Shown: piece after piece, positions 1-25,669 of the stretch
Numbering within the stretch: position 1 is the stretch's first letter
Layout: every line of letters begins with the position of its first letter
IMG/VR virus record: IMGVR_UViG_3300033076_000385
Span: 1 to 32,015 of that record
DNA length: 32,015 bases
Direction: 5' to 3' (one strand)
Origin: a virus
Lineage: Duplodnaviria; Caudoviricetes
Program-made: the position numbers and the translations under genes
The notes under the pieces: generated by a model
Databases searched by the model: none
The model's input: the letters and a program-made list of their open reading frames with translations, nothing else
Told to the model about the DNA's origin: nothing

Positions 1-515
1 CCTGATGTAGTAATTGATGTACCCGAACTACCTGAAGTTCCACTTACACCACTCGTACCAGAAGAACCACTCGATCCTGAAGTTCCTGAAGAACCAGATG
101 TACCACTTACACCACTTGTCCCTGAACTACCTGAACTACCTGATGTTCCACTTGTTCCAGAAGAACCACTAGAACCTGAAGTTCCTGAAGAACCATTAGA
201 TCCCGAAGAACCAGATGTTCCTGAAGAACCACTAGAACCCGATGTACCACTAGAACCTGAAGAACCTGAAGTACCTGATGTTCCACTACTTCCCGATGTT
301 CCAGAAGAACCTGAAGAACCACTAGAACCCGATGTACCACTTGTACCACTAGACCCATTAGAACCCGAACTACCCGAAGTTCCACTACTTCCTGAACTAC
401 CTGATGATCCAGATGTTCCCGAACTACCTGATGTTCCCGAACTACCACTTGAACCCGAGCTTCCTGATGTGCCGCTAGAACCACTAGAACCCGACGTACC
501 ACTTGAACCTGAAGT
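1..515 (-). repeat. 9-bp-period coding repeat, tract B (G-S/T-S triplets, truncated by the window edge)
   Basis: Same unit types as tract A; shares a 52-bp identical segment with it. Confidence 0.9.
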
Positions 516-7354: not shown

Positions 7355-8062
7355 TTATAGTAAATCTTTTGGAAAAAGTTGTGGATATTTTTCTCTAATA
7401 TTCGTTTGTTTTTCTTGACTGAAGTATTTGATTTTAAAGTCTTTGTCGGGTCTATATTGTGGATTGAAATATACGATATGAAGTTTACCTGACATTAGTA
7501 AATCGTATATGTAATCTTCAAATTTTATATTAGGTATCTCAGTACCTACCCCCTTTATTTGATATAGTATTCCTTGTTCTTGATTATGAACAATTGCTAC
7601 ATGTGAAAATCCGTTACCCCTCTCATCTATCTCCCTCAACTCAATTAAATTATCCTCATAATTACATCTACCACAATTATCCATTCTTACAATCATTTCC
7701 ATTGAGTGGTGTCTCTTTAAATCCACCCAATAATAACCGACTCCATTTACTCTGTAATCTAAAATGATTTCATTGGTTTCTATGTAATTTTTTGATGTGT
7801 AATTTTTAGAATATTCAGAAATCGAGTTCTTCCATAAATCTTCAATTTCCAACACGGTCTTCTCATTCAATATTGAATAGTCGGAATTGTTAATATTTTC
7901 AACATAATTTGCGACATTATATAATATAACAGATAAAGTGAAATCAGAACTCTTTCTTATCGATGGGTATGATGCTTGTATTTTACTTAATGTTAACTCA
8001 GCATTTTTTAACCCCACTACTTTTATTGTTAATTTTAATTGGTCTAAATAAGAAGATGCCAT
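7355..8062 (-). CDS. Hypothetical protein
   Basis: 235-aa ORF coupled by TAATG to the upstream gene; contains CGRC and YQIKG; no family recognised with confidence. Confidence 0.7.
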   Translation of the reverse strand: MASSYLDQLKLTIKVVGLKNAELTLSKIQASYPSIRKSSDFTLSVILYNVANYVENINNSDYSILNEKTVLEIEDLWKNSISEYSKNYTSKNYIETNEIILDYRVNGVGYYWVDLKRHHSMEMIVRMDNCGRCNYEDNLIELREIDERGNGFSHVAIVHNQEQGILYQIKGVGTEIPNIKFEDYIYDLLMSGKLHIVYFNPQYRPDKDFKIKYFSQEKQTNIREKYPQLFPKDLL

Positions 8063-8550
8063 TATATTAAAGTCTTGTTTATATCTTTTTTATTTCCTAA
8101 TCTTAATCTATTTTCACTGTTTGGGTCGAATATATCTTCATAATATGTTATGGGTACATTCAATATCTTTGATAAACTATGGATTTCATCATTCCATTTA
8201 ATAATGTCGTCATATGCTATCTGATCTATGGGTGTCTCTTCCCAAAAATATTGTTGGTTAGAATTAAATCCTTTAGAACTGTTATGTACTCTATATGAGT
8301 GACTTTCTGCACATGCCTTTAGGTCTCTCCTACTTAATAAAATAATCTCGTCAAACCTTTCAGATAATTTAACATTATCGTCATGTTGACATATTATAGT
8401 TTTGACTACAGAATTATCTTCATTATTATAAATCACTCTACCACTACCATCAAATGGTTCAAAATAAGGTTTAAGATTCTTTTCTTTTGATATTTTATGT
8501 AATAAAGAAGTTGACCCCGTTCTTGGTAATGATATGATTAAAATCTTCAT
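8062..8550 (-). CDS. Small sulfotransferase-like protein (P-loop/Stf0-like)
   Basis: N-terminal ILIISLPRTGSTSL (5'-PSB-like loop), FEPF, ILLSRRD, ITYYED. Confidence 0.7.
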   Translation of the reverse strand: MKILIISLPRTGSTSLLHKISKEKNLKPYFEPFDGSGRVIYNNEDNSVVKTIICQHDDNVKLSERFDEIILLSRRDLKACAESHSYRVHNSSKGFNSNQQYFWEETPIDQIAYDDIIKWNDEIHSLSKILNVPITYYEDIFDPNSENRLRLGNKKDINKTLI

Positions 8551-9071
8551 ATTAATTTCTTAGTGTCATCTAATTTATGATAAATAAAATTAGTATCGTT
8601 CATCCATATGTTGAGAGATTGTCTAATTCCTATATTAACAGGCATTACTCCATGAAAAATTTTATTACCTTCGAATGTTACACCCTCACCCATTTTTAAA
8701 TCTAATTTAATTTTACCATTTTCTAATTCAGTATCAAAATTTGATAATACGAATCTACCGTCTTTATAGTTAGTAGTTAATGGTATTACGGTGGTGTAAT
8801 TGGATGTTTTATCAAGATGTAAATCTAACCTCCTACCATCATAATATTGGGTGAAACTTACATTTATATTCCTTATATTAAAAGAATCAAAAGATTGTAC
8901 ATCTAATATAGACTTTAAAATTTTAGATTTAAATTCTTCATTATATATTCTTTTACAATCCCAATTATCATTGGGGTTATATGAAAATTGGTCACCGTTT
9001 TTTAAACAAAATTCAATGATTTCATTACATTCTTCTTGATTGAAGTATTGATTGATTTTGTATTGAATCAT
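8547..9071 (-). CDS. 2OG-Fe(II) oxygenase (prolyl-hydroxylase-like)
   Basis: HLD...FHGVMPV..GIRQSL (HxD...H...R). Confidence 0.85.
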   Translation of the reverse strand: MIQYKINQYFNQEECNEIIEFCLKNGDQFSYNPNDNWDCKRIYNEEFKSKILKSILDVQSFDSFNIRNINVSFTQYYDGRRLDLHLDKTSNYTTVIPLTTNYKDGRFVLSNFDTELENGKIKLDLKMGEGVTFEGNKIFHGVMPVNIGIRQSLNIWMNDTNFIYHKLDDTKKLI

Positions 9072-9886
9072 AATAAATTAGTTTTTACATTATCGAAATT
9101 CTCTTCCAATAAATTATGATTAATAATCCATTCATAAATTAGGCCGGAAAGTATTTCATACCCATTTTTATTTGGGTGTTTTCCAAATGTATTTATCCAC
9201 AAAGAATTATCTTCCCAAACATCTTTTCTATTCGTTTCTGTTAACAAATCTTTCATTGTTTTTTGACCGAAATGCATGTAATGATTTTTATTAATTAGAT
9301 GTGTTTTATCAATTGTATTATTTGGGTTGTTAACCATTAAATCAAACGCATCACAAAATAAAAATTTAACACCCATTCTTTGAAACATAAACTGTAAGTA
9401 TAAAATGTAATTTTGATTTACTATTTGGTAATAGGTTTCATCATACAATTCATTAAAAAAATATGTTTTATATTCTTTTTTAAAAAATGAATAATCTTTA
9501 TTTTTTGATTCTTTTATGTTATCGAATATGAATTTATATAGATGTTGTTTAGAGGTGTATCTTTGACCCCAAAAATGCCACTCATCCTTCGGGAAAAATG
9601 GGACCTCATCTCTTAATGATGAACTCCACATTATGACCACTAAATCGTTAGTTTTAATCTTATCCGTTTCTAAAAACGAACAAACGGCATCGAAGATTGT
9701 CTTATTAGAACAACCACCGATGCCGTTATTTTGAAATTGTATATATAGTTTTTCTGCCAATTTTGTTGGCCAACTATGAAGATGTCTAATTTTTGTTTTC
9801 TCTACGTAGTCATCGACTTTATTTTCTTCAGTCAAATCCGATCCAACTCCCTCAGTCCAACTATCACCAAACGTAAATAACTTCAT
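9068..9886 (-). CDS. SGNH/GDSL hydrolase-fold protein
   Basis: FGDSWTEG, GIGGCSN, C-terminal KHPNKNGY. Confidence 0.75.
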   Translation of the reverse strand: MKLFTFGDSWTEGVGSDLTEENKVDDYVEKTKIRHLHSWPTKLAEKLYIQFQNNGIGGCSNKTIFDAVCSFLETDKIKTNDLVVIMWSSSLRDEVPFFPKDEWHFWGQRYTSKQHLYKFIFDNIKESKNKDYSFFKKEYKTYFFNELYDETYYQIVNQNYILYLQFMFQRMGVKFLFCDAFDLMVNNPNNTIDKTHLINKNHYMHFGQKTMKDLLTETNRKDVWEDNSLWINTFGKHPNKNGYEILSGLIYEWIINHNLLEENFDNVKTNLL

Positions 9887-9897
9887 AAATCATAAAC

Positions 9898-10026
9898 TTA
9901 TGATAAATGTTTTGTTTTAATTTTATTTACAACTTCCTGTACCGCCGATGCAATTTTAGTTTTTTTATCTGCAGTTAATGGTGTAATGTTTACTTTAATT
10001 ACACTATTTGGTCTTTCTATTTTCAT
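9898..10026 (-). CDS. Small basic 42-aa protein
   Basis: MKIERPNSVIKVNITPLTADKKTKIASAVQEVVNKIKTKHLS. ATG 10026 follows an A-rich leader and fills the gap between neighbouring genes; the track's 10110 start would overlap the upstream gene. Confidence 0.65.
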   Translation of the reverse strand: MKIERPNSVIKVNITPLTADKKTKIASAVQEVVNKIKTKHLS

Positions 10027-10048
10027 TTTATTTTGTTTTATTTTTTTA

Positions 10049-11536
10049 TTAGAGTTTTGAATATCCACCAAAACAACCTGGACAATAATAACTGTTGCAA
10101 TAGTGACCACAATAATTCCACGGACACCAACAAGAGTTGTGCATTACCCCATAATCACCGTCACCAAAATCAACTAAGAAAAGGTCAGATGGTTCAAAAT
10201 CTAAACTATAAATGGTCATATTGGCATGCTCCATTTCTAATCCGGTGATTTCTAATGTTGTTAATTGTTGAGTATTTGAATCAGTAACAATTAATTTATC
10301 ACCAATAACCAATTTATTTAACTTTTCAAAACGAGTTGCGGTAGAATTAACCTCTTCTATATAATACGTACAAGACGGAGCATCTACCCAACTTTTACCG
10401 TCTGCAGTTGTAATTCTAATGTAAATTGTATCAACTAAAGAACCAACTATACCATTTAATGTTGATCCTGTTGTTGTTAATGTTTCATTTGAAAGTGCAA
10501 CCGTTCCTTCCCAACCAAATAATTCTAACTTTTCTCTTTCAAATTTTCCACCATGATTACCATGTGAATCGACAAAATCAATAGATTTAATCATGTCCCC
10601 TATTTGTATGGTGTCCACATCTTTTAAAGTCCCATCAAATGATAATATCATTGAATCTTGGTCGGTGTGATAATCTTTACTAGCAAAATTACCTAATTCT
10701 TTTGTGATATATTTGTACCTACTTTTTTGATTTAATTTAAAAGTATTTTCTACGTATTCATCAGCACTAAAAGTAACAGGAATAATGGTTGATTGTTTAT
10801 ATCCACCCATATTAATAACATCTAAATTACCACCATAAATGATATCGATACTTCTAATGATTGCATATCTACCATCAACCAAATTGTCCGAAGAATATAC
10901 AAATTCTTGTAATAAAACAGAGTCAGTCTGGTTTAATTTTAACGTCTCAAGGTCACCAATAGTTGGTACTGTGTATATTTCAGGATATAGTTTTTGGTCA
11001 TATTCAGGATTTCTTGGTTTTACCAATAGATTTGGGTGAGTCAAATCACTCAAATCAACCGAAGTTAACGTATCCATAGATAAACTTGTGGAGTTGAAGT
11101 ACGTATTGGGGATATATGTTGATCCGCTCATTAAATTGAAAAATTCGAATTTATCAGCACAATATGTTTCATCCACCAACGCAGTTGTGTCAAATGATTG
11201 TCTTAAAATGAATTTGTTCGGTGCATCCTCAACAAATGGAACAGTAACAGAACCTCTAGGTACAGTATATTCGGAAAATGTGATATTATTTTCACCACAT
11301 TTTTGTTCTAAAATTTGTTTAAATCTAAATGTTTGGTTAAGTGGTTTATATGAGTCAGATTCTGTCCATATGAAATGGAATTCAGTTATCGAATTATTCA
11401 CCAACATGGTAAATAACGAATCATAATCCAAAAAATCCGCACCATCATTGTAAATGGTGGTATTTGTGTTAATTTCAAGTATTTTAACGTCCCCGTTTTG
11501 TTCTAGAAGGTCAGTTCCAATTATTGTACCTTTCAT
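10049..11536 (-). CDS. Circularly permuted ATP-grasp-like domain + Hint (intein-like) domain + C-terminal Cys/aromatic-rich peptide
   Basis: GTDLL..GDVKILEINTN at the N-terminus, then LLVKP and LLQEFV (ATP-grasp elements in permuted order). Hint-like N block SMILSFDGTLKDVDTIQIGDMIKSID; C block TIYSLDFEPSDLFLV...VMHN|S; then SCWCPWNYCGHYCNSYYCPGCFGGYSKL. Confidence 0.7.
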   Translation of the reverse strand: MKGTIIGTDLLEQNGDVKILEINTNTTIYNDGADFLDYDSLFTMLVNNSITEFHFIWTESDSYKPLNQTFRFKQILEQKCGENNITFSEYTVPRGSVTVPFVEDAPNKFILRQSFDTTALVDETYCADKFEFFNLMSGSTYIPNTYFNSTSLSMDTLTSVDLSDLTHPNLLVKPRNPEYDQKLYPEIYTVPTIGDLETLKLNQTDSVLLQEFVYSSDNLVDGRYAIIRSIDIIYGGNLDVINMGGYKQSTIIPVTFSADEYVENTFKLNQKSRYKYITKELGNFASKDYHTDQDSMILSFDGTLKDVDTIQIGDMIKSIDFVDSHGNHGGKFEREKLELFGWEGTVALSNETLTTTGSTLNGIVGSLVDTIYIRITTADGKSWVDAPSCTYYIEEVNSTATRFEKLNKLVIGDKLIVTDSNTQQLTTLEITGLEMEHANMTIYSLDFEPSDLFLVDFGDGDYGVMHNSCWCPWNYCGHYCNSYYCPGCFGGYSKL

Positions 11537-11561
11537 AATTTTTTATATATTTCTTTTATAA

Positions 11562-11575
11562 TATAAATATAAATA
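11562..11575 (-). promoter_or_regulatory. Two overlapping TATTTATA motifs upstream of the ATP-grasp/Hint gene (possible phage promoter)
   Basis: TATAAATA on the + strand at 11562-11569 and 11568-11575; the same motif lies upstream of the fibre gene. Confidence 0.35.
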
Positions 11576-11578
11576 TTC

Positions 11579-11875
11579 TTAAATTAAAGTTTTATCGATT
11601 TTATCCTCTAAAATATCCATGTGTTTTGAATCCACCTCTTTCCATAGTTTTAAAGGACAACTATTGTATAATTTTGAAAATATTTTCTTATTTATTGGAC
11701 AACTACATTTTCCACAGTATGCGGACCACATGTTGTTTTTTATTAATTCATTCCTGAATTCACAACCGAGACACACTTCTAACCTTTCATTTGCCAATTT
11801 TTTTTGAGTTTCGTTTGGTTTAAAAGATGTGACCCATGAATCGAATATATCTTTATAATTTGGTTTCTCTATCAT
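11579..11875 (-). CDS. Small Cys-rich putative metal-binding protein (DUF6171-like)
   Basis: RLEVCLGC...CGKCSC...K......CPLKLW pattern. Confidence 0.65.
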   Translation of the reverse strand: MIEKPNYKDIFDSWVTSFKPNETQKKLANERLEVCLGCEFRNELIKNNMWSAYCGKCSCPINKKIFSKLYNSCPLKLWKEVDSKHMDILEDKIDKTLI

Positions 11876-12633
11876 ATTAATGTCACCTCTTTTTTGGGGA
11901 TATCGTAAAAATCGTATATATTATTATAATTTTTAATAAATTCATCATCCATGTGTACCTTACAGTCTATATGACTACTAGAATTTACATTTTTTATTTT
12001 AAATGGTTTGTTAGTAATATTTGAAATCCATTCTTCCATTTTTGACAACTCATTAATATTGAACCATATTATGTCCTTATTATGGTTATGCCAAACGGAA
12101 GATGGTGTTAATAATATATCAATTATGTTTATCACGTATTCATCTGGATTCATCGACATTTTGTTGGGTATTTGTACCTTTTTATTGATTAACCCATTTT
12201 CATATAAGTAGTTAGATATGGTATCCCATCTACTTTTTTTAGTTACCAAATCATCCGTTTTCCAAAAGAATAGCTCATTAGTTGTTAGATTGGATAAATG
12301 TTTAGATATTTCACTATAACCTGTCCTATTCAAATCAAAGATTACATGTTTAAATAATGAATAAAAAACCTCATGTCTATCTCTATACACTGCTATGATT
12401 GGGTATGTGGTACCAAATTTTTCTTGTAATTCGATTAAGGGGACATGTCCGTGTACTATATGATTCATTATATTTGATTCATCTATATTTTTAAAATCTA
12501 TTTTAGAATTTTCAATATCAGAATAATCCCCTGTATTTTTTATATCCAAATTATATAGTATACAGGAATAATGAAAAGATGTCGATCCTCTTCTAGGTAA
12601 TGATATATATATGAATTTATTATCTATTAACAT
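11872..12633 (-). CDS. Sulfotransferase-like protein (sulfotransferase family 2-like)
   Basis: FIYISLPRRGSTSF, HGH, AVYRDRHEVFYSLF (3'-PB-like); paralog of 12633-13355. Confidence 0.65.
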   Translation of the reverse strand: MLIDNKFIYISLPRRGSTSFHYSCILYNLDIKNTGDYSDIENSKIDFKNIDESNIMNHIVHGHVPLIELQEKFGTTYPIIAVYRDRHEVFYSLFKHVIFDLNRTGYSEISKHLSNLTTNELFFWKTDDLVTKKSRWDTISNYLYENGLINKKVQIPNKMSMNPDEYVINIIDILLTPSSVWHNHNKDIIWFNINELSKMEEWISNITNKPFKIKNVNSSSHIDCKVHMDDEFIKNYNNIYDFYDIPKKEVTLI

Positions 12634-13355
12634 TATATAATTGTATTTTGTTTTTTAAAAGTTTCATACGTACCATAAATTGATTCATATTTTTGTTTGA
12701 AGTTGTCGTCATTGACGATATTCGAACAATACTCTTTACTCGAACCAAAATTTTCTAATTTAAAATTTATTCCGCAAGTTTTTGAAACCCATCTTTCTAA
12801 TTCAATTAAGTTTTCAAAATCGAACCATATTATATTAGAATCATTTGTATGATAATAGGATAAAGGGGCAAAAATTGGCATAAGTAATTCATTCAATTTC
12901 GGATTATAATAATCGACCCCAAGTTTTTTTAAAAATTTTGGGATGTGTCGTTCTATCATAACTTTAGATATCACTGTTTCCTTTTTATAATCCATCAATT
13001 CATCGGTGGTCACATTTTTAAATTTATTATAAAGTTCGATTTCCCCCATTTTATATAATTGTCCAATTACATGATTAAAATAAGAAATGAATCTTTCGTA
13101 TTTGTCTCTTTTTACTGATATAACTGGGTAATTGTAACCAAATACCGCTTTTATATCCGTTAATTGCTCATGAATATGTTTAATTCTATAAACTAAATCT
13201 ATGTTTGGTATATTTGAAATATCATAATCAAATACAGTATCGTATTTTATTTGGGTGTGTTCTACTGTTAAGTTATTTCTAAAACAACTTAAATGAAATG
13301 ATGTGGATGCACATCTGGGTAAACATAAAAATATAAATTTATTATCTACCAACAT
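12633..13355 (-). CDS. Sulfotransferase-like protein (sulfotransferase family 2-like)
   Basis: FIFLCLPRCASTSF, SVKRDKYERFISYF. Confidence 0.7.
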   Translation of the reverse strand: MLVDNKFIFLCLPRCASTSFHLSCFRNNLTVEHTQIKYDTVFDYDISNIPNIDLVYRIKHIHEQLTDIKAVFGYNYPVISVKRDKYERFISYFNHVIGQLYKMGEIELYNKFKNVTTDELMDYKKETVISKVMIERHIPKFLKKLGVDYYNPKLNELLMPIFAPLSYYHTNDSNIIWFDFENLIELERWVSKTCGINFKLENFGSSKEYCSNIVNDDNFKQKYESIYGTYETFKKQNTII

Positions 13356-14005
13356 TAGAATAAACTTTTTTCTTTTTTAATTAATTCAAACCCAACGTTT
13401 CCAGCCATAACGATTCTATCTACTGTTGATTTTGGTGCGTTCATTGGTGCATGTGGCATCCAACCCGGCATCACCACTAAATCATCTTCTTCGGGTCTAA
13501 TCCAATGTTCTTTCCCATTATCACCTTTAAAATATAAAACACCATCCTCACCCTCCATTACATCCGGCATTTGAATATAGTAAACATACGTATAGTGTGG
13601 GGTAAACGAACCCATTTCTTTATTTATATCAGTATGGATGTGATATTTTTGGTCGGTATGAAAATTTGATTGTACGGGATTTTGAGATCGAACCATATTC
13701 ACCCACGCATCGGTATTAATTTTATTATACGGATTTTTAATTTCCTCCTCCCAAATTTCTTTACATTTATCAATACCCGATTGACAAATCAAATCTAATT
13801 TATTTATTATTTCAAATTGTCCGTTGAAATTTATATCATTGGTCCATTCTTTTTTATAACCATATCCGTCGGTTTCCGCCGCTCGTTGTCCTTCGTAACT
13901 TTTAATTAATTTTTTTGATTCAATCAAAAGTTCTTCTTTAATATCGGTTAAATTTAATTTACCAACCCAAATGTATGTTGAGTCATCAAATTGTATTTTT
14001 TTCAT
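13355..14005 (-). CDS. 2OG-Fe(II) oxygenase-like protein (TIGR02466-type)
   Basis: AWVN, HIH, YVYYI, PGWMPHAP, DRIVMAGN. Confidence 0.75.
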   Translation of the reverse strand: MKKIQFDDSTYIWVGKLNLTDIKEELLIESKKLIKSYEGQRAAETDGYGYKKEWTNDINFNGQFEIINKLDLICQSGIDKCKEIWEEEIKNPYNKINTDAWVNMVRSQNPVQSNFHTDQKYHIHTDINKEMGSFTPHYTYVYYIQMPDVMEGEDGVLYFKGDNGKEHWIRPEEDDLVVMPGWMPHAPMNAPKSTVDRIVMAGNVGFELIKKEKSLF

Positions 14006-14334
14006 AGTAAATGTTTTAAAATTATATACGAACTAATGCCAATCCAAATCGTATTAAAGAGAATAAGTGTTGGTAAACTCTTTCTCATGGATGCCCAAAT
14101 TAAAAGTGAGGATGTTATTAAAGTCACAAAATGCATCCACCATATTTCAACACCAAAAACCAAACCAGGTATTATTATAATAGCCTTTGCCATCCATGCC
14201 GATAATTCAATTGTGTTATAATTTGTCCAATAATTCTCATCCTTGAACATCATGTATTTTTCAATTATAAAATCCCACCCAACTACAGTATATAGTAACC
14301 CCGTTATCGTTAAAAATGTAAGTAACCAAATCAT
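14002..14334 (-). CDS. Small multi-pass membrane protein
   Basis: 110 aa with 3-4 hydrophobic segments. Confidence 0.7.
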   Translation of the reverse strand: MIWLLTFLTITGLLYTVVGWDFIIEKYMMFKDENYWTNYNTIELSAWMAKAIIIIPGLVFGVEIWWMHFVTLITSSLLIWASMRKSLPTLILFNTIWIGISSYIILKHLL

Positions 14335-15572
14335 ATTAATTTTTTTTCTAATTGTTTTTTATTTTTACCAAAAACTAACTGATAATTACCAATAAAAAAA
14401 GTTAGTTCATTTATTTTAGTTTCAGTTAATTCGAATGAATTTATTAATTCAAAATCGTTATGAATTTTTATTGATCCGTCATCGTTTAATATTTTTTGTA
14501 ATTTTTCGGGTATCGGCATGTTCACACAATCTTTCCAAAATTCGGTGTCGTTTCTTTCACAGAGATAGTGATATCTAACAAACAACATATTTTGTTCGTT
14601 TATTTCACTACACCATTTGTTGTAACTGTCTCTATATGTTTCATCAAAATTCACATCGATTAATCGTTTCAATTGCATAACAACAGTCATTAACGATGTT
14701 GCTTCTAACGGTTCTAAAAAACTATAAGATAAACCTATTGCAACACTATTTTTAATCCAACTATGTTTGTATGTACCTGGTTTAAAATCAAATACTTTTT
14801 GTATTTTAATTTCGTGTCCTAAATGTTCCTCAATTTCTTTTTTAGCATCGTCTACCGAAACATACGAATCATTGAACACATAACCACATCCCCATCTATG
14901 TTGTAATGGTACTTTCCACATCCACCCGCAATTCATAGATGTTAATTCGGTTGTTGTTTTTTCTTCAAACTTATATTTGTTTGATTGGGGTAGGAAGAAT
15001 CCAAATGCTTTGTTAAGTAATAGATATTTTGAATAACTTACCCAATCATCATTATGAATTTTATTAAAAATTATCCTTGAGAAACCACTACAATCAAAAA
15101 TGAAATCCAAATCTATTACATCTGAATTATCTAATACAATTGAATTGATTTCACCATCATTATGATTTATGGTTTCCACTATACCATCGATGTGATTAAT
15201 TCCTCTTTCTAATGCTATTGATTTTAAATAACTCGCGGTTAATTTTGCATCAAAGTGAAATGCATAACCTGTTTTACTTTTGGCATCCTCACCTAACATT
15301 ATATGGTAAAATGTATTATTTTGATTTGTCCAATTAATAAGTTCCAATCCCTTTTTAACTGTTGCACCTGTCTTTTCAAAAAAATCGCGTTGGTCAATAT
15401 CTAATAACATTAACATTTTTCCAAAATTAGATGTAGAACCTTCTCCGGCACCTAATATACCAATTTTAGAACTTTCGATTACTGTGACGTTGGTGTCTTT
15501 CCAAAACTTTTGAACAACCAACGCAGTTAACCAACCCGCAGTTCCTCCACCAACTATGACCACTTTTTTCAT
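14331..15572 (-). CDS. Flavin-dependent tryptophan halogenase family protein
   Basis: VVIVGGGTAGW, GAGEGST, ATVKKG (catalytic Lys position), FDCSGF, WMWKVP (WxWxIP-like), FLEPLEAT. Confidence 0.88.
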   Translation of the reverse strand: MKKVVIVGGGTAGWLTALVVQKFWKDTNVTVIESSKIGILGAGEGSTSNFGKMLMLLDIDQRDFFEKTGATVKKGLELINWTNQNNTFYHIMLGEDAKSKTGYAFHFDAKLTASYLKSIALERGINHIDGIVETINHNDGEINSIVLDNSDVIDLDFIFDCSGFSRIIFNKIHNDDWVSYSKYLLLNKAFGFFLPQSNKYKFEEKTTTELTSMNCGWMWKVPLQHRWGCGYVFNDSYVSVDDAKKEIEEHLGHEIKIQKVFDFKPGTYKHSWIKNSVAIGLSYSFLEPLEATSLMTVVMQLKRLIDVNFDETYRDSYNKWCSEINEQNMLFVRYHYLCERNDTEFWKDCVNMPIPEKLQKILNDDGSIKIHNDFELINSFELTETKINELTFFIGNYQLVFGKNKKQLEKKLI

Positions 15573-16138
15573 ATTAAACTAATTTTCTTTGTGGAACTTG
15601 GCCAAACATTTAATGAATATCTCTTACCCGATTTTATTTTATCTACGGAATGTAAAATATTTGAATCGAAAATGAATACACTTCCTTTTATTTTTGGTAC
15701 ATCATATTCCACACCTTCTAACATATATTTTACAAGTCCATCTTCATAATCATCATTTAATTGAATAATATATGTAATGGTTGCACCGTTTATAATTTCA
15801 TGTCTGTCTTCGTGCCATTCTAAAAAATCACTGTCCCCATATCTATTAAAAGAGTATTTGGGAATTCTAACATATTCAACGGAATTAAATGGTTTTATTT
15901 CATTAGAAAGGTCAATTATTCTTTTTGAGATATTAACTAAAAGTGGATCCATTAAAAATTCATCGGTAAAATAACAACCTGACCTTTTATTACCTGAATA
16001 TGATATATTCTCCTCCACAACTTTACCATTAACAATACGAGACGATTTCATTTGATTTAACCCAAACGATTCACCCATCTCAATTATCAAATCACATTCT
16101 TCTTCGGTAAGAAAATTTTTAACGAATTTTGTAAACAT
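15569..16138 (-). CDS. 2OG-Fe(II) oxygenase (prolyl-hydroxylase-like)
   Basis: FLTEEEC, WHED, HSVDKIKSGKRYSL. Confidence 0.88.
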   Translation of the reverse strand: MFTKFVKNFLTEEECDLIIEMGESFGLNQMKSSRIVNGKVVEENISYSGNKRSGCYFTDEFLMDPLLVNISKRIIDLSNEIKPFNSVEYVRIPKYSFNRYGDSDFLEWHEDRHEIINGATITYIIQLNDDYEDGLVKYMLEGVEYDVPKIKGSVFIFDSNILHSVDKIKSGKRYSLNVWPSSTKKISLI

Positions 16139-16350
16139 TATTCTTTTTTTAAACCAAATTTAATCCACTTATACCATATTCTTTCGTGTATATAATATTG
16201 AATGGGTTTATATACTAATTCGGCAACTCCAAAAGCTGCTCCGACCTTTACCGATCCACTTATCCACCACATAATCGCAAAACCAATCAATGTACTAATA
16301 ATACGATATGAAATAGTTTTAGCTATGTGTCTTTTACGTTGTACTATCAT
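16138..16350 (-). CDS. DUF2061-family small membrane protein
   Basis: RHIAKTISYRIIST...YYIHERIW. Confidence 0.8.
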   Translation of the reverse strand: MIVQRKRHIAKTISYRIISTLIGFAIMWWISGSVKVGAAFGVAELVYKPIQYYIHERIWYKWIKFGLKKE

Positions 16351-16727
16351 TATCCCTTATTTTCATCATAAGTCATGGTTCCATCCGGTTTCATATGTCC
16401 GGTTCTAATTGCAGTCCCACTAATTGTTGCAATATCAGTTGGTGGCTCGTGATAGATTACATCATAACCCACACCTCTACCATAGTTCACACTTTCAATA
16501 TCAGGAATTACTGAAATAAATAACTTACCCGTTTGTAGTAAATCATGTAATTCAACTTTTAATTCATCAAATACTTGTTGTGCGGTTTTTGGATTGTTCT
16601 CATCCACTTGTACATCTCTAATTGCCAACCAAACATTTTTACCTTTGTTTAATTGTTGGTCTATCAACCATTGATGTCCTTTGTGCCAGTTTTGCCATCT
16701 TCCGATGTATAATGCATATTTTTTCAT
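16350..16727 (-). CDS. Cytidylyltransferase-like (HxGH) nucleotidyltransferase
   Basis: GRWQNWHKGH, ISGTAIR (SxT/SxxR-like). Confidence 0.8.
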   Translation of the reverse strand: MKKYALYIGRWQNWHKGHQWLIDQQLNKGKNVWLAIRDVQVDENNPKTAQQVFDELKVELHDLLQTGKLFISVIPDIESVNYGRGVGYDVIYHEPPTDIATISGTAIRTGHMKPDGTMTYDENKG

Positions 16728-17161
16728 AGGTCTATCATTTTTAAAATTTCAATAAAAGATTCATCTTCTCTTCTATCTGTTGTATTAATGTTTAAATAAT
16801 TTTCCAATGGGGGTTCATAATCTTTGACGTGAAAAGATTCCCTTCCTCTTTCATCGGTAGTGTTAACATATATCTCAGTAACACTGTTTTCTTTTTTAAA
16901 TTGTTCTCTTTGTTCTCTATAGGGAGATACAAGTGAGACAACAACAGAGTGTCCTTTGGAATTCATAAATCGGGCAATATCTTGTGCCCTTTCTATGTTT
17001 CTTTTTCTACCGTTTTCGGAATAGTCTTGATTATTAAAAATGTCCCTTAAGTCATCACCATCTATATGGATGACCTTTTCCGTATTGCTCAAATACGAAA
17101 TTAAATGTTTTGCTAGTGTGGTCTTACCTGCACCAGGTTGACCTGTAAACCAATATATCAT
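16724..17161 (-). CDS. cysC: Adenylyl-sulfate (APS) kinase
   Basis: WFTGQPGAGKTT, IDGDDLR, R..NI.R, VSLVSPY, YEPP. Start moved from 17197 to ATG 17161. Confidence 0.85.
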   Translation of the reverse strand: MIYWFTGQPGAGKTTLAKHLISYLSNTEKVIHIDGDDLRDIFNNQDYSENGRKRNIERAQDIARFMNSKGHSVVVSLVSPYREQREQFKKENSVTEIYVNTTDERGRESFHVKDYEPPLENYLNINTTDRREDESFIEILKMIDL

Positions 17162-17168
17162 AAGTAAT

Positions 17169-17197
17169 AATATAATGGTTTTTTTTGAAAAAATCAA
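17169..17197 (-). promoter_or_regulatory. sigma70-type promoter TTGATT-17-TATATT, probably producing a leaderless cysC mRNA
   Basis: -35 at 17197-17192, -10 at 17174-17169, then 7 nt to ATG 17161. Confidence 0.55.
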
Positions 17198-18123
17198 ATG
17201 ATTTTTGGTATGAGTGAAATCAATTCTTCTTTTAAAAGATTAACATTTTTTTCCCTAAACTCTATATCTGTTTTATAGTAATATTTGTCCAACCAAACAT
17301 GATAATAATCAATTTTTTCTGTGTGGTCAACTCTATCGGGGTCCTTTACCCAAAACAAACCTTTTCCACAATGTTTTGGTCCTAAAACAGGTAATTCGGG
17401 ATAAGATAAGTATAATCTATCCTCCACAGTTTCAACCTTACAATCTAATTTACGGGCAGAATATCCCATAATTCCTTGATCTGCAAGTAACCATAACCAT
17501 TCGGGAACTTCTTTATATTCTCGAGTAATTAAGTCCAAATGACTTTCTAAGTATAAATCCCTTAATTTTTCGTTGTTCATTAATATGAAAGACGTATTAG
17601 GCATCATCATATTTTGGACAAAGTTTTGAATACCACCTATCTGTTCTAATTGATATTCGAACACGAAAAACTCCCCTCTTTGTATCTCCCATTGAGTATG
17701 GACTAAATCGTAATCATTGGTCCATTTTGGTAGGGGGCTCCTCAATATAAAATCTAAATCCAAAAATAGATATGGTACAGGTTCTTTACCAATAACAATT
17801 GATTTACCCGTTGTCCAAAAACGACCCGGATTAACGTGAGAATATTCTTTGTTAAATGTTTCCAATGTCTCAACATCTATTTCATCCCACAACTTTAATA
17901 AACCCTTCTTTTTATAGAATTCATAACCAACGTTATCGGTGTATAATTTTGTTTTACCTATATACTTTTTAGCGGCCCTTACACTTACCTCTTGTATTAG
18001 TAATTCATAATCAACTACATCATATTCAACATCAGATAGTTCTGACATTTTTAATTTATTATATCCCTGTGCATCCTTTTTATGAAAAAATGGTGCCGTC
18101 CAATTTACAAATATTGCTTTCAT
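17194..18123 (-). CDS. GT-A-fold glycosyltransferase-like protein (DUF6734-like)
   Basis: KLYTD, FWTTGK, PYLFLDLD, PNTSF, ADQ; resembles 24103-25140. Confidence 0.6.
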   Translation of the reverse strand: MKAIFVNWTAPFFHKKDAQGYNKLKMSELSDVEYDVVDYELLIQEVSVRAAKKYIGKTKLYTDNVGYEFYKKKGLLKLWDEIDVETLETFNKEYSHVNPGRFWTTGKSIVIGKEPVPYLFLDLDFILRSPLPKWTNDYDLVHTQWEIQRGEFFVFEYQLEQIGGIQNFVQNMMMPNTSFILMNNEKLRDLYLESHLDLITREYKEVPEWLWLLADQGIMGYSARKLDCKVETVEDRLYLSYPELPVLGPKHCGKGLFWVKDPDRVDHTEKIDYYHVWLDKYYYKTDIEFREKNVNLLKEELISLIPKII

Positions 18124-18896
18124 ATGTGTTGAAAATATATATCTTTTTTCATTAATTGTGAAATATGTTGATTCAATTCTCGTTGATTGAAATGATTTTC
18201 TAATTTAGCATTACATACAATAGGTTCATATCTTTTTATATACTCATCCAAACTACTACATCTCCTTTTTGTAAATTCTACGAATGACATTTCTTCTGAT
18301 GCGATTCCAATCTTTTGTGTTGTGTTAATATCTATTAACTCATCTATTACATCAACACTTGAACAATATATGAAACCAGCGTTTGGTGTGACAAAGGAAT
18401 TATTCCAATCGTAATGGTATTTTTCTAAAAATTCTTGTTGTTTAATCACATAATCCTTTTCTTTCGGTGGTATATCTTTCCATTCATTTAAAACGAGTTC
18501 CGAATAATTCTTAGGATAGATGTAAAGTGGCATTTGTATCTTTAAATCTTTGGTTTCTATATGTTCGTAAAACCAATTATCAATCGGTTTTACTTGTAGA
18601 CAATCCCAATCTAAAAAAATCACCTCATGATATAATTTAATACCTTCTTTGATTGCAACCAGTTTATGAATCATGTATTGATTTGAATCGTACAAATAAT
18701 CTGAACCATATTGTGTTGATTCGTTTGATAATAATACACATTCAAAACCCAAAGACTTTATAAAATTATAATTTTCAGTGCCCCAAACAAAAACAACTTC
18801 ATACAATGATTTATTTTTTGACACTTCAATTATTTCTTTCTTATGTCTTTGGTTAAAGTTATTTAAATCTCCCCAAAAAGATCGTATGAATTTCAT
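18120..18896 (-). CDS. DxD glycosyltransferase-like protein
   Basis: HKL, VIFLDWDC, TPNAGFIYC; tandem paralog of 18893-19660. Confidence 0.6.
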   Translation of the reverse strand: MKFIRSFWGDLNNFNQRHKKEIIEVSKNKSLYEVVFVWGTENYNFIKSLGFECVLLSNESTQYGSDYLYDSNQYMIHKLVAIKEGIKLYHEVIFLDWDCLQVKPIDNWFYEHIETKDLKIQMPLYIYPKNYSELVLNEWKDIPPKEKDYVIKQQEFLEKYHYDWNNSFVTPNAGFIYCSSVDVIDELIDINTTQKIGIASEEMSFVEFTKRRCSSLDEYIKRYEPIVCNAKLENHFNQRELNQHISQLMKKDIYFQHI

Positions 18897-19660
18897 AGAT
18901 GTTTAAAATAAATTTCTTTTTCTATCTTCCTATTTTTATATTCGGTAAAAACCGCTTCCATGTTATTCCACCAATCGTATCCGTGTTCTTTCCCATCCAC
19001 AACTAAAGGTTCTATTTTTTCAATATAACCATCCAACCCTAAGTTTTTGGTATATAGAAATACCGATAACTCATCGGGAACAGTTTGTAAATCGTGTTGA
19101 ACTATAAGTTTTATTAATTCTACGATTATATCTTTATTAGAACAATATATGAATCCGGTGTTTGGGATTATAAAACTATTTCCATATTTGAAGGAGTAGT
19201 TTGTTATATATGTTTGTAATTTTTTAAAGAAGTTTATCATGATGTCATCTTTAACATCACTAATCATTCTATCGAATGCAAACATTGGGTATGTGTATAG
19301 AGGTACTTGAAAATCAGAATTTCTGTTTCTAATTAAACTATAAAAATTATCATCAATTTCTTTTACTTTTCTACAATCCCAATCAACAAACACTATCTCT
19401 TCGTGTTGGTGTAGAGCATGTCCGAGTCCAATTATTTTGTGGATTAAACTTTTGTGATTTACAAATGTGTGATTATCTGCAATTGTATAATCATACGGGT
19501 CATCACTTATTAAAACACAATCATATCCCAAGTTTTTTAAATTGTTATAGTTGTCTTTTCCCCACACATAAACAACCTCATTAAGATTGTCACTTTTGGC
19601 ATCAATTATTTGATTTTGGTATCGATTAAAATCTCCCCACAATATTCTTACGAATTTCAT
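18893..19660 (-). CDS. DxD glycosyltransferase-like protein
   Basis: HKI, IVFVDWDC, IPNTGFIYC. Confidence 0.6.
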   Translation of the reverse strand: MKFVRILWGDFNRYQNQIIDAKSDNLNEVVYVWGKDNYNNLKNLGYDCVLISDDPYDYTIADNHTFVNHKSLIHKIIGLGHALHQHEEIVFVDWDCRKVKEIDDNFYSLIRNRNSDFQVPLYTYPMFAFDRMISDVKDDIMINFFKKLQTYITNYSFKYGNSFIIPNTGFIYCSNKDIIVELIKLIVQHDLQTVPDELSVFLYTKNLGLDGYIEKIEPLVVDGKEHGYDWWNNMEAVFTEYKNRKIEKEIYFKHL

Positions 19661-20364
19661 ATTAACTTATTTTTATTTATTTTTAAACTAATCAAATCAC
19701 TCAATAATTTATGTGCAATATGATTTGGGTGTTTATCTTGTGGGTCCACATCATTTCTACTATCACTTAATGTGATTTTACTTTCTGTTGCCCATCTCAT
19801 AATTGATGGTGTGTATTCATTTGATGGTAATAGAAAAGTAACTGTTTTATCGTTATCAATAAATTCATGAAAATTATCATCCAAAAACAGATAAACATAC
19901 CTAATACCAATAGTCTTTTCTAAAAATTTTAAAGTGTCGTTAACTCTATTAAACTTATAGAATAAGGTTTCTTTTGACCAATCATTTACAAAAGACATTA
20001 ATGATAATATTTTATCATCGGTGAACGGATATTTTTCTCTTCCTCCACCCCATTGATTCATTACTCTGACAGTATCTTCCAACGTCTCCCCAATCCCCGC
20101 GCTTGAATAATAAAACGAATTGTTAACCATAAACCCTTCTCGATTACCCGCAGTGAATTGGTAGATTATTAAATCATCTTTTTTAAATGTATTAATATCC
20201 GATAATAAACGATGAAAAATCTCATTGTGACATAATGCTGGAAAAGACCTATTATTATATTCACAACCCATATATTTCGCCAATAAATAAGTAAATGATT
20301 CTTCTTCGTTAATCCAAAACGGAAAAGAGAATGAACAACCATATGTGTGTATTTTTTTCATCAT
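19657..20364 (-). CDS. SGNH hydrolase-fold protein
   Basis: YGCSFS, C-terminal DKHPNHIAH. Confidence 0.65.
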   Translation of the reverse strand: MMKKIHTYGCSFSFPFWINEEESFTYLLAKYMGCEYNNRSFPALCHNEIFHRLLSDINTFKKDDLIIYQFTAGNREGFMVNNSFYYSSAGIGETLEDTVRVMNQWGGGREKYPFTDDKILSLMSFVNDWSKETLFYKFNRVNDTLKFLEKTIGIRYVYLFLDDNFHEFIDNDKTVTFLLPSNEYTPSIMRWATESKITLSDSRNDVDPQDKHPNHIAHKLLSDLISLKINKNKLI

Positions 20365-21014
20365 AATAAGGTTAATAAATGTTTTGCAAACATTAAATGA
20401 GATTGCTCACTGAAATGTAAATCATTTATTAGATTGTTTGTTTCATTTTTTATTGACCCATGTGTATCGATGAAATAATCGTAGATATTTTTTCCGTTAT
20501 ACGTTAACATATATTTTGACTGTATGTTCATTCCCCAAAAAAACAACTTACATTTTCTCATTTTACAAAACTCATTAATCAATGTGTAATGATTATTAAC
20601 TTCGTCCACAAATAAATGATTAGTTCTATTTAAAATAGTATCTTTAATTGTTTGGGTAGACATACCTAAATCATTTAAATTTTTCAATTCTTGAATTAAA
20701 TCAGGATGGTCTATATGTTGAAATAAAACGTTATACCACTTATCACCGGCAACTCTAAATCTAGATGTTTCGGTCCAATTGATGATGACGATGTCATTTT
20801 CTTTTATTTGATTAGAACACTTTGAGAAGTTCTCCATTATCTGTGGATTATTGGTTCCCGATATGGCGTGATTTTCTAATTCGTAATTAATATCTCTACT
20901 TAAAATTTCACTCCATGTATCTATCTGATACCCTTTCCATTTGACATAATCTTCTCTGTCTTTGGGTTGTCTTTCATCCGAAATCGAACACCCAAATATC
21001 CATAATTTATTCAT
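20361..21014 (-). CDS. SGNH hydrolase-fold protein
   Basis: FGCSIS, NHAISGTNN, WTETSR, DLHFSEQSH. Confidence 0.7.
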   Translation of the reverse strand: MNKLWIFGCSISDERQPKDREDYVKWKGYQIDTWSEILSRDINYELENHAISGTNNPQIMENFSKCSNQIKENDIVIINWTETSRFRVAGDKWYNVLFQHIDHPDLIQELKNLNDLGMSTQTIKDTILNRTNHLFVDEVNNHYTLINEFCKMRKCKLFFWGMNIQSKYMLTYNGKNIYDYFIDTHGSIKNETNNLINDLHFSEQSHLMFAKHLLTLL

Positions 21015-21592
21015 TAATATTCAATTTTGTGGTCTTGTGGTAAAGTTAAACTTTGTCCAACGATGACATCTCTTTCGCCACTAACAGTTTGGGTTACGAA
21101 ATGAGGATGTGTAATTCCTCCGGGAAAAACTATAACATCTCCTTTGTTTAATTTTACACTTATACCTTGTCTAGGAAATGTGAGTACACCACCAACATAA
21201 TTGTCATTTAGACAACCAACAGTAGTTATCCCACTAAAATCCCAATGTACATTGTTTTCAGAATTACCCGAATTTTTTGGTGAATAATGAAGAAGAAAAA
21301 CATCTCTCCACTTTGCTGACACATAATTTTTAATGTCTTTAATTGTTTGTTCACTAACATTAAAACCTTTACCACTTTGGACATCATATATTTTAAAATA
21401 ATCATCCATCATGGGGGTTTCAATTTTATTTAACCAAAAATCATTAAACTCCAACAACAAATCTTTATTGTGTTCATGAATATTAATTCTATCTATGTTA
21501 TTAGAATCTTTTCTCAGTTGAATTAATTTTTCAATTAATTCATGGGGGATAATTTCTGTAAATAAAAATATATCAGATCCTAAATTTCTCAT
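21014..21592 (-). CDS. 2OG-Fe(II) oxygenase (lysyl/prolyl-hydroxylase-like)
   Basis: HWD, LNDNYVGG, FPGGITHPH, SGERDV. Confidence 0.85.
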   Translation of the reverse strand: MRNLGSDIFLFTEIIPHELIEKLIQLRKDSNNIDRINIHEHNKDLLLEFNDFWLNKIETPMMDDYFKIYDVQSGKGFNVSEQTIKDIKNYVSAKWRDVFLLHYSPKNSGNSENNVHWDFSGITTVGCLNDNYVGGVLTFPRQGISVKLNKGDVIVFPGGITHPHFVTQTVSGERDVIVGQSLTLPQDHKIEY

Positions 21593-22326
21593 ATTAAATT
21601 AGTTGGTTTCACTCCATCATCTTGAATGTTGAAATTTATGACACATCTATGTGATTTACCGTAGAAAGGTTTCACCGAATGTACAATGTCATATGGCCAT
21701 ATTAATAACATACCCTTCTTAGGTCTAATAAAATGTGACATTCCTCTTAAATGGAATGTGAATACTCCACTATACTGATGGTCTAATAATGGGTCACCAT
21801 CTGATAGATAATAACCGCCAACAAAACTTAATGGTCTAGCCTCATCGGGACTCCATCTACAATGATTATGCATGTTGTGTCCACGACCTTTATATGGATG
21901 ATAATATTGAATCCAACTCTCAGTGATATTTGGTTCTCCTTGAGGTTTCTTATTAATCATTTCTAATAATTCCAAATAACCGTCAGTACATCTTTTTTTT
22001 ATTTCTTTTACGATGTCTTCGTTTCTATTTAAAAAGTTATTTGGTGGAACTGAAAATCTACTACCTATTGGGTTATATTCGGTAGGTTCCACCCACTGAT
22101 CCCAACGATAATAATCAACATTATAGTTATCCTGTCTATTAAAATCATATTGTTCAGGTAATTCTTGTCCCATTTGTTTTTCCTTTTCGGTCAATTCATT
22201 AAATCCAAGATTAAACACTTCATCGTGAAAATCATGGTCATGAAATTCTTTATATAAAACAGGTATGGGTGCCAAATAGAATAAATTTTCTTTTCCTGAT
22301 GGCATCAATGGTTTTTCAAAGTACAT
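21589..22326 (-). CDS. 2OG-Fe(II) oxygenase-like protein (TIGR02466-type)
   Basis: ESWIQ, HNMHNH, GGYYL, HSVKPF, RCVINFN. Confidence 0.8.
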   Translation of the reverse strand: MYFEKPLMPSGKENLFYLAPIPVLYKEFHDHDFHDEVFNLGFNELTEKEKQMGQELPEQYDFNRQDNYNVDYYRWDQWVEPTEYNPIGSRFSVPPNNFLNRNEDIVKEIKKRCTDGYLELLEMINKKPQGEPNITESWIQYYHPYKGRGHNMHNHCRWSPDEARPLSFVGGYYLSDGDPLLDHQYSGVFTFHLRGMSHFIRPKKGMLLIWPYDIVHSVKPFYGKSHRCVINFNIQDDGVKPTNLI

Positions 22327-22341
22327 TGTATTTTTTTTATA

Positions 22342-22461
22342 TTAATGTTTATAGATAAACGGATCACGTTTTCTTAATTCTTCTAATTTTTTTTGAAATT
22401 CTTTTTTCTTTTTTCTTTGAGCTAATTTATTCTTAACCCAATTTATAAGGTTCTTTATCAT
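22342..22461 (-). CDS. Small basic 39-aa protein ending RKRDPFIYKH
   Basis: Not in the track (too short). Manual translation MIKNLINWVKNKLAQRKKKKEFQKKLEELRKRDPFIYKH; fills the gap after the carbamoyltransferase. Confidence 0.75.
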   Translation of the reverse strand: MIKNLINWVKNKLAQRKKKKEFQKKLEELRKRDPFIYKH

Positions 22462-24102: not shown

Positions 24103-25140
24103 CTATATTACTTTAAAATTTTTATTTTTGACATTATTTAAATTTTCAATTTGTTTATTTAAATAAATCAAATAATCATTCGACATTTTTGAACAATTCC
24201 CCACTTCATTGAATTTAGAATCAATCTTAATAACTTCATTAATCATGTCAAAATCTTGGATTAATTTTTGTTTAATGATGAACATAATCTCTTCGTATGT
24301 TTTGTAACCATTTAAATGTAGAAATCCATTAAAATTATACGATATATTTCTGAATATGTCCATCTTATTTGCAACAAACAATTTCTTCTCGTTATTCTCA
24401 AATAATAGTGGATAAGTTAACCCTTCTCCTGATGACCTAATCCATGTTGGGTTGTCATTAAAGAAGAACGAAAATAACTCTCTGTCAGGTCTTCTTGGTC
24501 TGGAGAACATTCTAACAGCCGCAGGTATAAATAACTGTTCAATTATGCATGAATTATAGTAATCCGAATCAAAGAATTGTTTATTGTTTTCATATATATC
24601 CAAACAATATTTTGTTGCCTGTTTTATTGCATCGGTGTTATAACCACCAAAGACACACATGTTCATTATATCTCTGAACTTAACAAACTCCAAAAATTCT
24701 TCAGGTACATCATTTTGTATTTTAAATGCCCCTTGAATGTAGGTTGTGTAGAAATTAGTACCATTTTTTGTGTACGATACGTATTCACCCGAACCTTCAG
24801 CATAACAACCCCATACGGTATTTCTATCTAGTTCAGGTAACTTATCAAAAAGGAAAGTGTCCAAATCGATGTGTAAAAATGGTTCATCTTGATTTGCATA
24901 CACAATTAATTTTGGAATTGCAAATGTGTCAACTGTGACACCATTCAATAATTCAGTATTAATTGATGTGTATGGTATACCAATTTCTTTGACGATTTGT
25001 GATATTTCATCGTTACAATACAATTCAACTTTATCATAGTGTTTTTTTGCCAATAAAACAGATAACAACATACAATATGCAGTATATTCGTTAAAATCTG
25101 ATCCGTTTTTTGTATTAATGAATGTGTGTACTATTTTCAT
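24103..25140 (-). CDS. GT-A-fold glycosyltransferase-like protein (DUF6734-like)
   Basis: VELYCND, FAIPKL, EPFLHIDLD, NMCVFGG, IIEQ. Start moved from 25215 to ATG 25140 to remove a long overlap. Confidence 0.65.
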   Translation of the reverse strand: MKIVHTFINTKNGSDFNEYTAYCMLLSVLLAKKHYDKVELYCNDEISQIVKEIGIPYTSINTELLNGVTVDTFAIPKLIVYANQDEPFLHIDLDTFLFDKLPELDRNTVWGCYAEGSGEYVSYTKNGTNFYTTYIQGAFKIQNDVPEEFLEFVKFRDIMNMCVFGGYNTDAIKQATKYCLDIYENNKQFFDSDYYNSCIIEQLFIPAAVRMFSRPRRPDRELFSFFFNDNPTWIRSSGEGLTYPLLFENNEKKLFVANKMDIFRNISYNFNGFLHLNGYKTYEEIMFIIKQKLIQDFDMINEVIKIDSKFNEVGNCSKMSNDYLIYLNKQIENLNNVKNKNFKVI

Positions 25141-25141
25141 A

Positions 25142-25669
25142 TTATGAATTATATAATTCAGGATATTCTGCCATAACATGTATACCTCCATTTTGAATTG
25201 CGTTGGTATATGCAATGTCTACGTCTTTTGAATCCTTTATCTCCCAAAAAATAATGTTTGGGCACATTGTTTTGAATTGTTCTAAATAATTATTTTTATG
25301 TTGGTGACCCGGGTCAATTGGTTTATCTGAACCTTTACCCACTCGGATAATCATATTAGGTTTCCACTCACCATTACTCATCAAACCAATTTTATCCACG
25401 TGATTAACCAACTGATTAGTTGCACAAATTAAAAAGTCCCATCTCGGATAAAATGTAATAACCGTTTTACCACTCATGGCTAAACCTAAAGACATACCCA
25501 TTTGAGTATCTTCCATAACAGGTACTTCAATTAATTTATCAACAGGAACATTTGAAACTGTCGAACTCATTGGGTTACCTTGCCATTTAATTTGTTGGCC
25601 GATGAAGATTGTGTCTTCCCTTTCACCCAATTCGGTCATATATTTTGTTAATGTATCTTTATATGTCAT
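25142..25669 (-). CDS. TPP-dependent enzyme beta subunit (pyrimidine-binding domain of transketolase/E1-beta only)
   Basis: IFIGQ, EVPVMEDTQMGMSLGLAMSG, DFLICATNQLVNH, GHQH. Confidence 0.85.
   Translation of the reverse strand: MTYKDTLTKYMTELGEREDTIFIGQQIKWQGNPMSSTVSNVPVDKLIEVPVMEDTQMGMSLGLAMSGKTVITFYPRWDFLICATNQLVNHVDKIGLMSNGEWKPNMIIRVGKGSDKPIDPGHQHKNNYLEQFKTMCPNIIFWEIKDSKDVDIAYTNAIQNGGIHVMAEYPELYNS

Follow-up and report, generated by a model that had tools for sequence, protein, structure and literature searches.

A shared C-terminal Leu-Ile tail on modifying enzymes of a freshwater phage island, a candidate recognition tag for an ATP-grasp-Hint ligase

We investigated an entire 32-kb virus record (IMG/VR IMGVR_UViG_3300033076_000385; Duplodnaviria, Caudoviricetes), whose 32,015 nucleotides are hereafter called the window, and within it a short hydrophobic tail that ends many of the encoded proteins. 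The window's genes lie on the minus strand and comprise a Ser/Gly-repeat fibre-like gene, glycosyl- and methyltransferases, an enzyme island and nucleoside diphosphate (NDP)-sugar genes. Within positions 7355-22326, 14 of 23 genes end in two residues that are each Leu or Ile ([LI][LI]) and one more in Leu-Phe, against 0 of the 15 complete window genes outside this range (Fisher p ~1e-4; binomial p ~1e-14 against a 4% background). A sequence-only reading had listed thirteen such C-termini, and all of them are present at the genes named. It had also described the tail as missing from the NDP-sugar genes and the fibre-adjacent transferases, and we confirmed that these are untagged ("tagged" meaning tail-bearing). 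The carriers, together with the untagged and doubtful genes among them, are:

7355..8062, minus strand: 235-aa protein of no known family, tail PKDLL (12/13 of the family end [LI][LIF])
8062..8550, minus strand: 162-aa sulfotransferase-like protein, tail NKTLI (N-terminal motif only, no family hit; family 52/52 tagged)
8547..9071, minus strand: 2-oxoglutarate (2OG)-Fe(II) oxygenase, PF13640, tail TKKLI (family 103/105 tagged)
9068..9886, minus strand: SGNH/DUF6071 protein, tail KTNLL (family 38/49 tagged)
11579..11875, minus strand: 98-aa Cys-rich protein, phrog_13558, tail DKTLI (family 39/48 tagged)
11872..12633, minus strand: 253-aa sulfotransferase-like protein, tail EVTLI (Atlas feature hits of 0.95-0.96 to sulfotransferase/NKWYS clusters; family 55/55)
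12633..13355, minus strand: 240-aa paralogue of the 253-aa protein, tail QNTII
13355..14005, minus strand: 2OG-Fe(II) oxygenase, PF13640, tail EKSLF (family 39/44 tagged)
14331..15572, minus strand: flavin-dependent (tryptophan) halogenase, PF04820 (E 4e-89), tail EKKLI
15569..16138, minus strand: 2OG-Fe(II) oxygenase, PF13640, tail KISLI
16138..17197, minus strand: DUF2061, nucleotidyltransferase-like and adenosine 5'-phosphosulfate (APS) kinase genes, untagged (family tags 0/31, 0/27 and 0/18)
17194..18123, minus strand: DUF6734-like protein ending IPKII, a doubtful member (family 2/8)
19657..20364, minus strand: 235-aa SGNH-like protein, tail KNKLI (N-terminal motif, no family hit)
21589..22326, minus strand: 2OG-Fe(II) oxygenase-like protein, tail PTNLI (PF13759 below the curated cut-off; family 3/4 tagged)

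The tail has the consensus K-[TSK]-L-I-COOH and follows a Lys/Asn-rich linker of varying length, with Lys at the fourth-last residue in ~57% of cases. The C-terminus IPKII exists as described, but its membership is doubtful, only two of its eight family members ending in [LI][LI]. Just beyond the range, a DUF6734 protein (24103-25215, minus strand) ends in the tag-like K-x-K-V-I, and some of its relatives in S-L-I. Genes 14002 and 20361, which the earlier list did not include, also end in LL; both are ambiguous.

With the 495-aa ATP-grasp-Hint protein of the island as query, we found 75 related loci on viral contigs of up to 316 kb; their genes were called by a simple open reading frame (ORF) caller, and some starts or small genes may be wrong. 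One relative, G001, is complete at 289 kb; its bS21, gp23, portal, sheath and tube genes identify it as a T4-like myophage. Freshwater bS21 phages, which G001 matches, are predicted to infect Bacteroidetes according to the accessible part of PMC9723584, and by this likeness the host of the window's own phage may also be one of the Bacteroidetes. The carrier group is large uncultured freshwater phages. Outside the island, [LI][LI] ends occur at a background level of 12/342 genes in G001 and 11/241 in G003, and G004, a complete relative without the island, has 8/263. The plain [LI][LI] pattern also picks up proteins that are not tagged, such as the NT5C family (6/6; present in G004 too).

Such a tail could instead be a by-product of the DNA, left by an A/T-rich start context at overlaps, by a promoter or by recombination sites where genes end. 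The genome has ~30% GC, TTAATA-TGA holds the next ATG, and an ATGA overlap forces a last codon ending in A, all of which fit such an origin; against it, the tail is as frequent where genes do not overlap. Eleven families, picked after their tails were seen, so that the pooled fractions describe and do not test, kept the tail at 144/151 ATGA, 79/88 TRATG, 112/120 short-gap and 68/73 distant junctions, and a second junction comparison gave 182/199, 149/159, 176/200 and 100/118. The sequence-only reading had raised the prospect that the motif is equally common in all overlapping genes; outside the island, genes at ATGA junctions carried it in just 2/20 and 0/14 cases. Among 318 genes without overlap, T stood at the second position in 97% for each of the final two codons, the first and third positions varied, Leu codon usage followed internal usage, all three stop codons were used, and no conserved motif lay past the stop. 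Furthermore, the motif stood at the C-terminal end of 528/676 proteins as against 0.8% of internal positions. Because of this junction independence, second-codon-position bias, terminal placement and variable linker, the sequences indicate that the tail is a terminal signal selected at the protein level. The overlap or start-context artefact and the DNA recombination site were rejected on the junction counts and the codon analysis, leaving a DNA by-product extremely unlikely. Selection on the protein had been proposed at the outset and was borne out, although one argument for it was wrong: ATGA and TAATG overlaps, said to differ in frame, share the same relative frame (the A of the next start is codon position 3 in both) and lie one codon apart. 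The conclusion stands despite this error because tagged families keep the tail at non-overlapping junctions.

The tail is carried by many kinds of protein. In 107 distinct ligase loci we counted 35 mostly tagged sequence clusters of at least three members, which are not all separate folds and from which three clusters ending in hydrophobic pairs for other reasons were left out; they include 2OG oxygenases, halogenase, sulfotransferase-like, SGNH, radical SAM, SET-domain, FkbM, GT2 and P-loop kinase proteins. Among the closest matches listed, 119/120 halogenase homologues end in [LI][LI]. A check for the tail in cellular homologues had been suggested, and just 1/94 cellular halogenases proved to be tagged. 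Likewise, 1/39 selected genes of six cultured cyanophage/pelagiphage clusters was tagged, and 2OG enzymes of the same fold at other places in G001 and the window were untagged. The DUF2061, nucleotidyltransferase-like and APS kinase genes are likely a sulfate-donor supply, and they provide an internal control within the island, remaining untagged while transferases and oxygenases are tagged. SET-domain proteins also occur in the island (L419:4877-5311; L294:16855-17238), some of them tagged; they point to a peptide or protein acceptor. At L340 (G009) and G005:29094-29633, tagged enzymes are scattered singly among unrelated genes. In the window, a 39-aa Lys-rich ORF with no family hit (22342-22461, minus strand) lies between a carbamoyltransferase and a 2OG gene.

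The 495-aa protein and its surroundings are arranged as follows:

10049..11536, minus strand: 495-aa hub candidate, GspS/YgiC-type ATP-grasp domain, Hint domain and Cys-rich extension, untagged (AlphaFold2 pLDDT 85.7, pTM 0.79)
10691..11536, minus strand: ATP-grasp domain, residues 1-282, with invariant D9, E21, N23, R112 and K173 (127 sequences)
10136..10669, minus strand: Hint domain, residues 290-467, ending in invariant His-Asn (H466, N467; 127 sequences)
10052..10135, minus strand: 28-residue six-Cys extension after His-Asn, which varies among relatives
9898..10026, minus strand: 42-aa small ORF, an extended segment and a predicted amphipathic helix, untagged
11563..11576, minus strand: two overlapping ATATTTAT copies upstream of the ligase start, a putative late promoter

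Tag frequency fell with distance from the ligase gene across the 107 loci (542/695, 238/451, 89/396, 39/283 and 29/270 in successive 2-kb bins), from 78% within 2 kb to 11% at 8-10 kb. In loci seeded with the halogenase, which were chosen irrespective of the ligase, and of at least 10 kb, the tag and the ligase occurred together in 23, the tag alone in 2, the ligase alone in 0 and neither in 25; over all lengths the numbers were 25, 12, 0 and 28, respectively. A divergent ligase found beside a halogenase led to further ligase clades at 22-31% identity, and the same tag adjoins these with different enzyme sets. Minimal islands, consisting of ligase, peptide and three to four tagged genes, occur at different genome positions (L433, L436), their tails often ending in Leu-Phe. 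Across clades at this identity, the constants are the ligase-Hint protein, the small ORF and the tag. G004, complete and with a capsid protein 72% identical, is without ligase and island, and its tails are at background level. The earlier proposal of a recruitment tag for a shared partner is the best-supported reading: of the three candidates that it had named, the 495-aa protein and the 42-aa ORF are both tracked by the tag.

Several observations weigh against a ligase-linked tag. Because the tagged halogenases fall mostly in one broad clade (a quick tree gave four changes, two of them forced), the 23/2/0/25 table represents few independent events, and the phages behind the untagged halogenase loci probably belong to other groups and infect other hosts. 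In G001, SGNH and radical SAM genes with the tag lie far from the ligase, and tagged genes occur in fragments in which no ligase was found (G009, 42% complete; G005, 45%). Several SGNH enzymes adjoining clade B ligases are untagged, and one island (L464) is tagged in 0/10 genes. Ligase clades that share 25% identity have almost the same tag, as would also be expected of a conserved reader in the host; clustering shows a functional module, not which protein reads the tag. The last residue is Phe in 4/10 tails from two loci, only a hint that the tag co-evolves with the ligase clade.

We then considered the structure of the ligase, as modelled from a 115-sequence alignment; an earlier fold from 44 close sequences was poor (pLDDT 59.9). 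Residues 1-282 matched YgiC (7uka; VIA Z 10.0, rmsd 4.2, 203 aligned) and GspS (2io7; Z 9.2), and also glutathione synthetases, and Foldseek gave E values of 9e-6 to YjfC and 1e-5 to YgiC. D9, E21, N23 and K173 may correspond to the metal- and ATP-binding D, E-x-N and K residues of GspS; a Gly precedes D9 where we would expect the GspS-type Arg. Residues 290-467 matched bacterial intein-like (BIL), intein and hedgehog Hint domains (Z up to 15.8), best BIL2 (6tmm; VIA Z 15.8, rmsd 2.0, 142 aligned), and matches in BFVD covered the Hint part only. Intein residue 1 aligns to H290, a His and not Cys or Ser, and the residue that follows the Hint Asn can be S, T, G, A, P, K, F or V, so a splicing intein, which has Cys or Ser at position 1 and a nucleophile after Asn, was rejected. 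The Hint fold and terminal His-Asn are those of a C-cleaving BIL-type domain; C-terminal cleavage without splicing is predicted because His-Asn is invariant and position 1 is His. Neither the 495-aa protein nor the 42-aa peptide has a covering family in Pfam, PHROGs or NCBIfam, and relatives of the ligase were found neither in species genomes (two patterns) nor in annotated phage records.

The segment that cleavage would release is highly variable. Among 284 distinct post-Hint extensions, 176 are Cys-rich, 73 are a second Hint domain, 28 have at most 10 residues, 3 are S74 and 4 are other; Lys occurs in every extension except six inter-Hint peptides. Tagged enzymes persist where the extension is just Lys-Asn (L459). 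This split, together with tags at a two-residue extension, rules out the Cys-rich extension as universal substrate or reader, and it cannot be the general acceptor. In double-Hint ligases (L457:9001-10854, P0256 and relatives), the two domains flank a 2-10 residue peptide, and the second Hint begins with Cys, mostly without His-Asn; for this reason one end of the peptide could be released and the other activated as a thioester. One further ligase-Hint protein (L432:7632-9269) ends in an S74-like chaperone module matching virion-protein PHROGs.

The small ORF and the upstream motif accompany the ligase closely. Wherever the flank was long enough, in 106/106 distinct loci, a helical ORF of 24-53 aa followed the ligase gene; a pattern identified 97 of these ORFs and a profile or inspection the other 9, five of them weakly. 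The ORF product may help to complete the fold of the ligase, serve as a leader or itself be the acceptor. The motif ATA[TC]TTAT was found within 70 nt upstream of 87/101 ligase genes and of 44/364 G001 genes, including sheath, tube, baseplate and two tagged genes, with a spacing of ~20-30 nt before structural genes and ligase, suggesting a candidate late promoter of the phage group. At the edge of the window, the fibre-like gene (3-1736, minus strand, open at the edge) carries long Ser/Gly/Thr repeats and comes directly after GT4-FkbM, methyltransferase and GT9 genes. All are untagged, and they likely form a separate glycosylation pathway for the fibre.

From the sequences and their neighbourhoods, we regard it as moderately probable that the tail is a recognition tag read by the ATP-grasp-Hint ligase with its small helical partner. 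This candidate hub would gather an interchangeable set of modifying enzymes in one place by binding the free terminal carboxylate and the Leu-Ile pair, and the recruited enzymes would then share one peptide or protein as their acceptor. Expression of the ligase gene is probably late, which would make the product probably virion-related. Within this reading, non-covalent docking of the tag on the hub is the likelier, though still tentative, form. ATP-grasp enzymes activate a carboxylate for amide formation, and every tagged neighbour of the ligase presents the same C-terminus. YgiC and YjfC are cited as peptide-polyamine ligases in the accessible part of PMC12568646. Given this ATP-grasp/YgiC chemistry, the untagged constant enzyme of the island belongs to a family acting on peptide C-termini, and it is conceivable, though rather improbable, that the ligase activates the K-x-L-I terminal carboxylate and joins it to an amine, which would anchor some thirty interchangeable modifying enzymes covalently in a sortase-like, plug-and-play manner. 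The amine could lie on the small helical peptide, on the extension set free by the Hint domain, on a virion protein or in a polyamine.

Two other readers of the tail have to be weighed against this hub. As a degron, the tail might be recognised by an AAA+ protease of the host (ClpXP C-motif-2 type) or by a tail-specific protease, so that the enzymes would be shorter-lived or less abundant. It resembles the MuA degron RRKKAI, in which basic residues precede a hydrophobic dipeptide (accessible text of PMC8138137 and PMC12723719), and hydrophobic last residues lower expression, possibly via degradation, as far as the available part of PMC7246954 describes. The tag is nearly constant across clades, and two of three genomes, G003 (C1:170671-171195) and G002 (C1:111931-112452), encode ClpP, but the complete, tag-bearing G001 does not. 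Unrelated regulatory or early genes should also carry a degron of the host, whereas the tag stays within one enzyme set, becomes rarer away from the ligase, spares the donor-supply enzymes of the same operon and is missing from same-fold 2OG enzymes elsewhere, which together make this reading fairly unlikely. A distinctly unlikely reading is that a structural protein or a compartment (head, tail or assembly site) recognises the tail as a signal for loading or localisation, comparable to T4 capsid-targeting and encapsulin cargo peptides, with the ligase as co-passenger. The putative late promoter before the ligase and two tagged G001 genes, the adjacency of island and fibre genes in the window and G003, and the one ligase ending in an S74-like module that matches virion-protein families would fit such loading; on the other hand, G004 shares the structural module yet has no tags, the ligase and peptide are themselves untagged, and the enzymes need cytoplasmic co-substrates.

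With the hub as the preferred reader, the shared four-residue tag would mark which of the many oxygenases, halogenases and sulfotransferases of large freshwater phages work together, and it points to one hub. If the hub does read it, a tailoring pathway of variable make-up would be assembled in an undescribed way, one that inverts the leader recognition of peptide natural products and might offer a portable tool for tagging or ligation; a degron would be a new phage use of a known principle and less interesting. No description of the tag or the ligase-Hint module was found in the literature searched, with supplements and most subscription papers outside the search.

Among known C-terminal signals, the peroxisomal targeting signal PTS1, [SAC]-[KRH]-[LM], requires a eukaryotic host with PEX5 and was rejected: the tail sequence differs, and the relative G001 is a T4-like phage by its bS21, gp23, portal and sheath genes. 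The class I PDZ ligand consensus is S/T-x-hydrophobic-COOH, on which the sequence-only reading had drawn; the third-last residue is Thr or Ser in 58% of 728 clade A tails and 24% in clade B. A PDZ reader encoded by the phage is not supported, PF00595 being found in 0/3 related phage genomes (control 12/14) and no PDZ, TPR or S41 protein among 331 G001 proteins. The targeting complex of cytosolic iron-sulfur assembly (CIA) recognises the tripeptide [LIM]-[DES]-[WF]-COO- (accessible text of PMC10245660), like here a short C-terminal signal on unrelated clients, and there sufficient for recruitment to one machine; it was rejected, since the consensus here is [TSK]-L-I, and it differs in being eukaryotic with Fe-S protein clients, whereas the carriers here are phage modifying enzymes and the reader is a candidate only. 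The ClpX C-motif 2, as the available parts of PMC8138137 and PMC12723719 present it for MuA, likewise places basic residues before a hydrophobic terminal dipeptide (here Lys at -4 and an [LI][LI] end), but in our case Leu-Ile is preceded by Thr, Ser or Lys and confined to one gene island. Cyanophage clusters combine tandem 2OG oxygenases, halogenases and a carbamoyltransferase in T4-like phages (PMC2938197 and PMC7824862, accessible parts). They are without the tag, and no annotated phage record matches the ligase.

The ligase itself has known relatives in fold. Its residues 1-282 are predicted to share the fold of the GspS-like ligases (E. coli YgiC/YjfC, glutathionylspermidine synthetase), but it is 13-16% identical to them, lacks ~90 N-terminal residues of YgiC, carries the Hint fusion and is always followed by the small ORF. 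Similarly, its Hint domain has the fold (Z 15-16) and terminal His-Asn of BIL and hedgehog domains, but no Cys or Ser at position 1 and an extension ranging from two residues to a second Hint or S74 domain. Clusters for peptides made on ribosomes and modified after translation (RiPPs) rely on leader recognition by RiPP recognition elements (RREs) and, like here, surround a peptide-bearing gene with many interchangeable tailoring enzymes. Here the logic is inverted, with the short motif on the enzymes and a candidate core peptide that is not constant: a RiPP core is expected wherever tailoring enzymes are, and the post-Hint extension shrinks to two residues beside tagged enzymes. The small ORF is constant, and could be a RiPP-like substrate.

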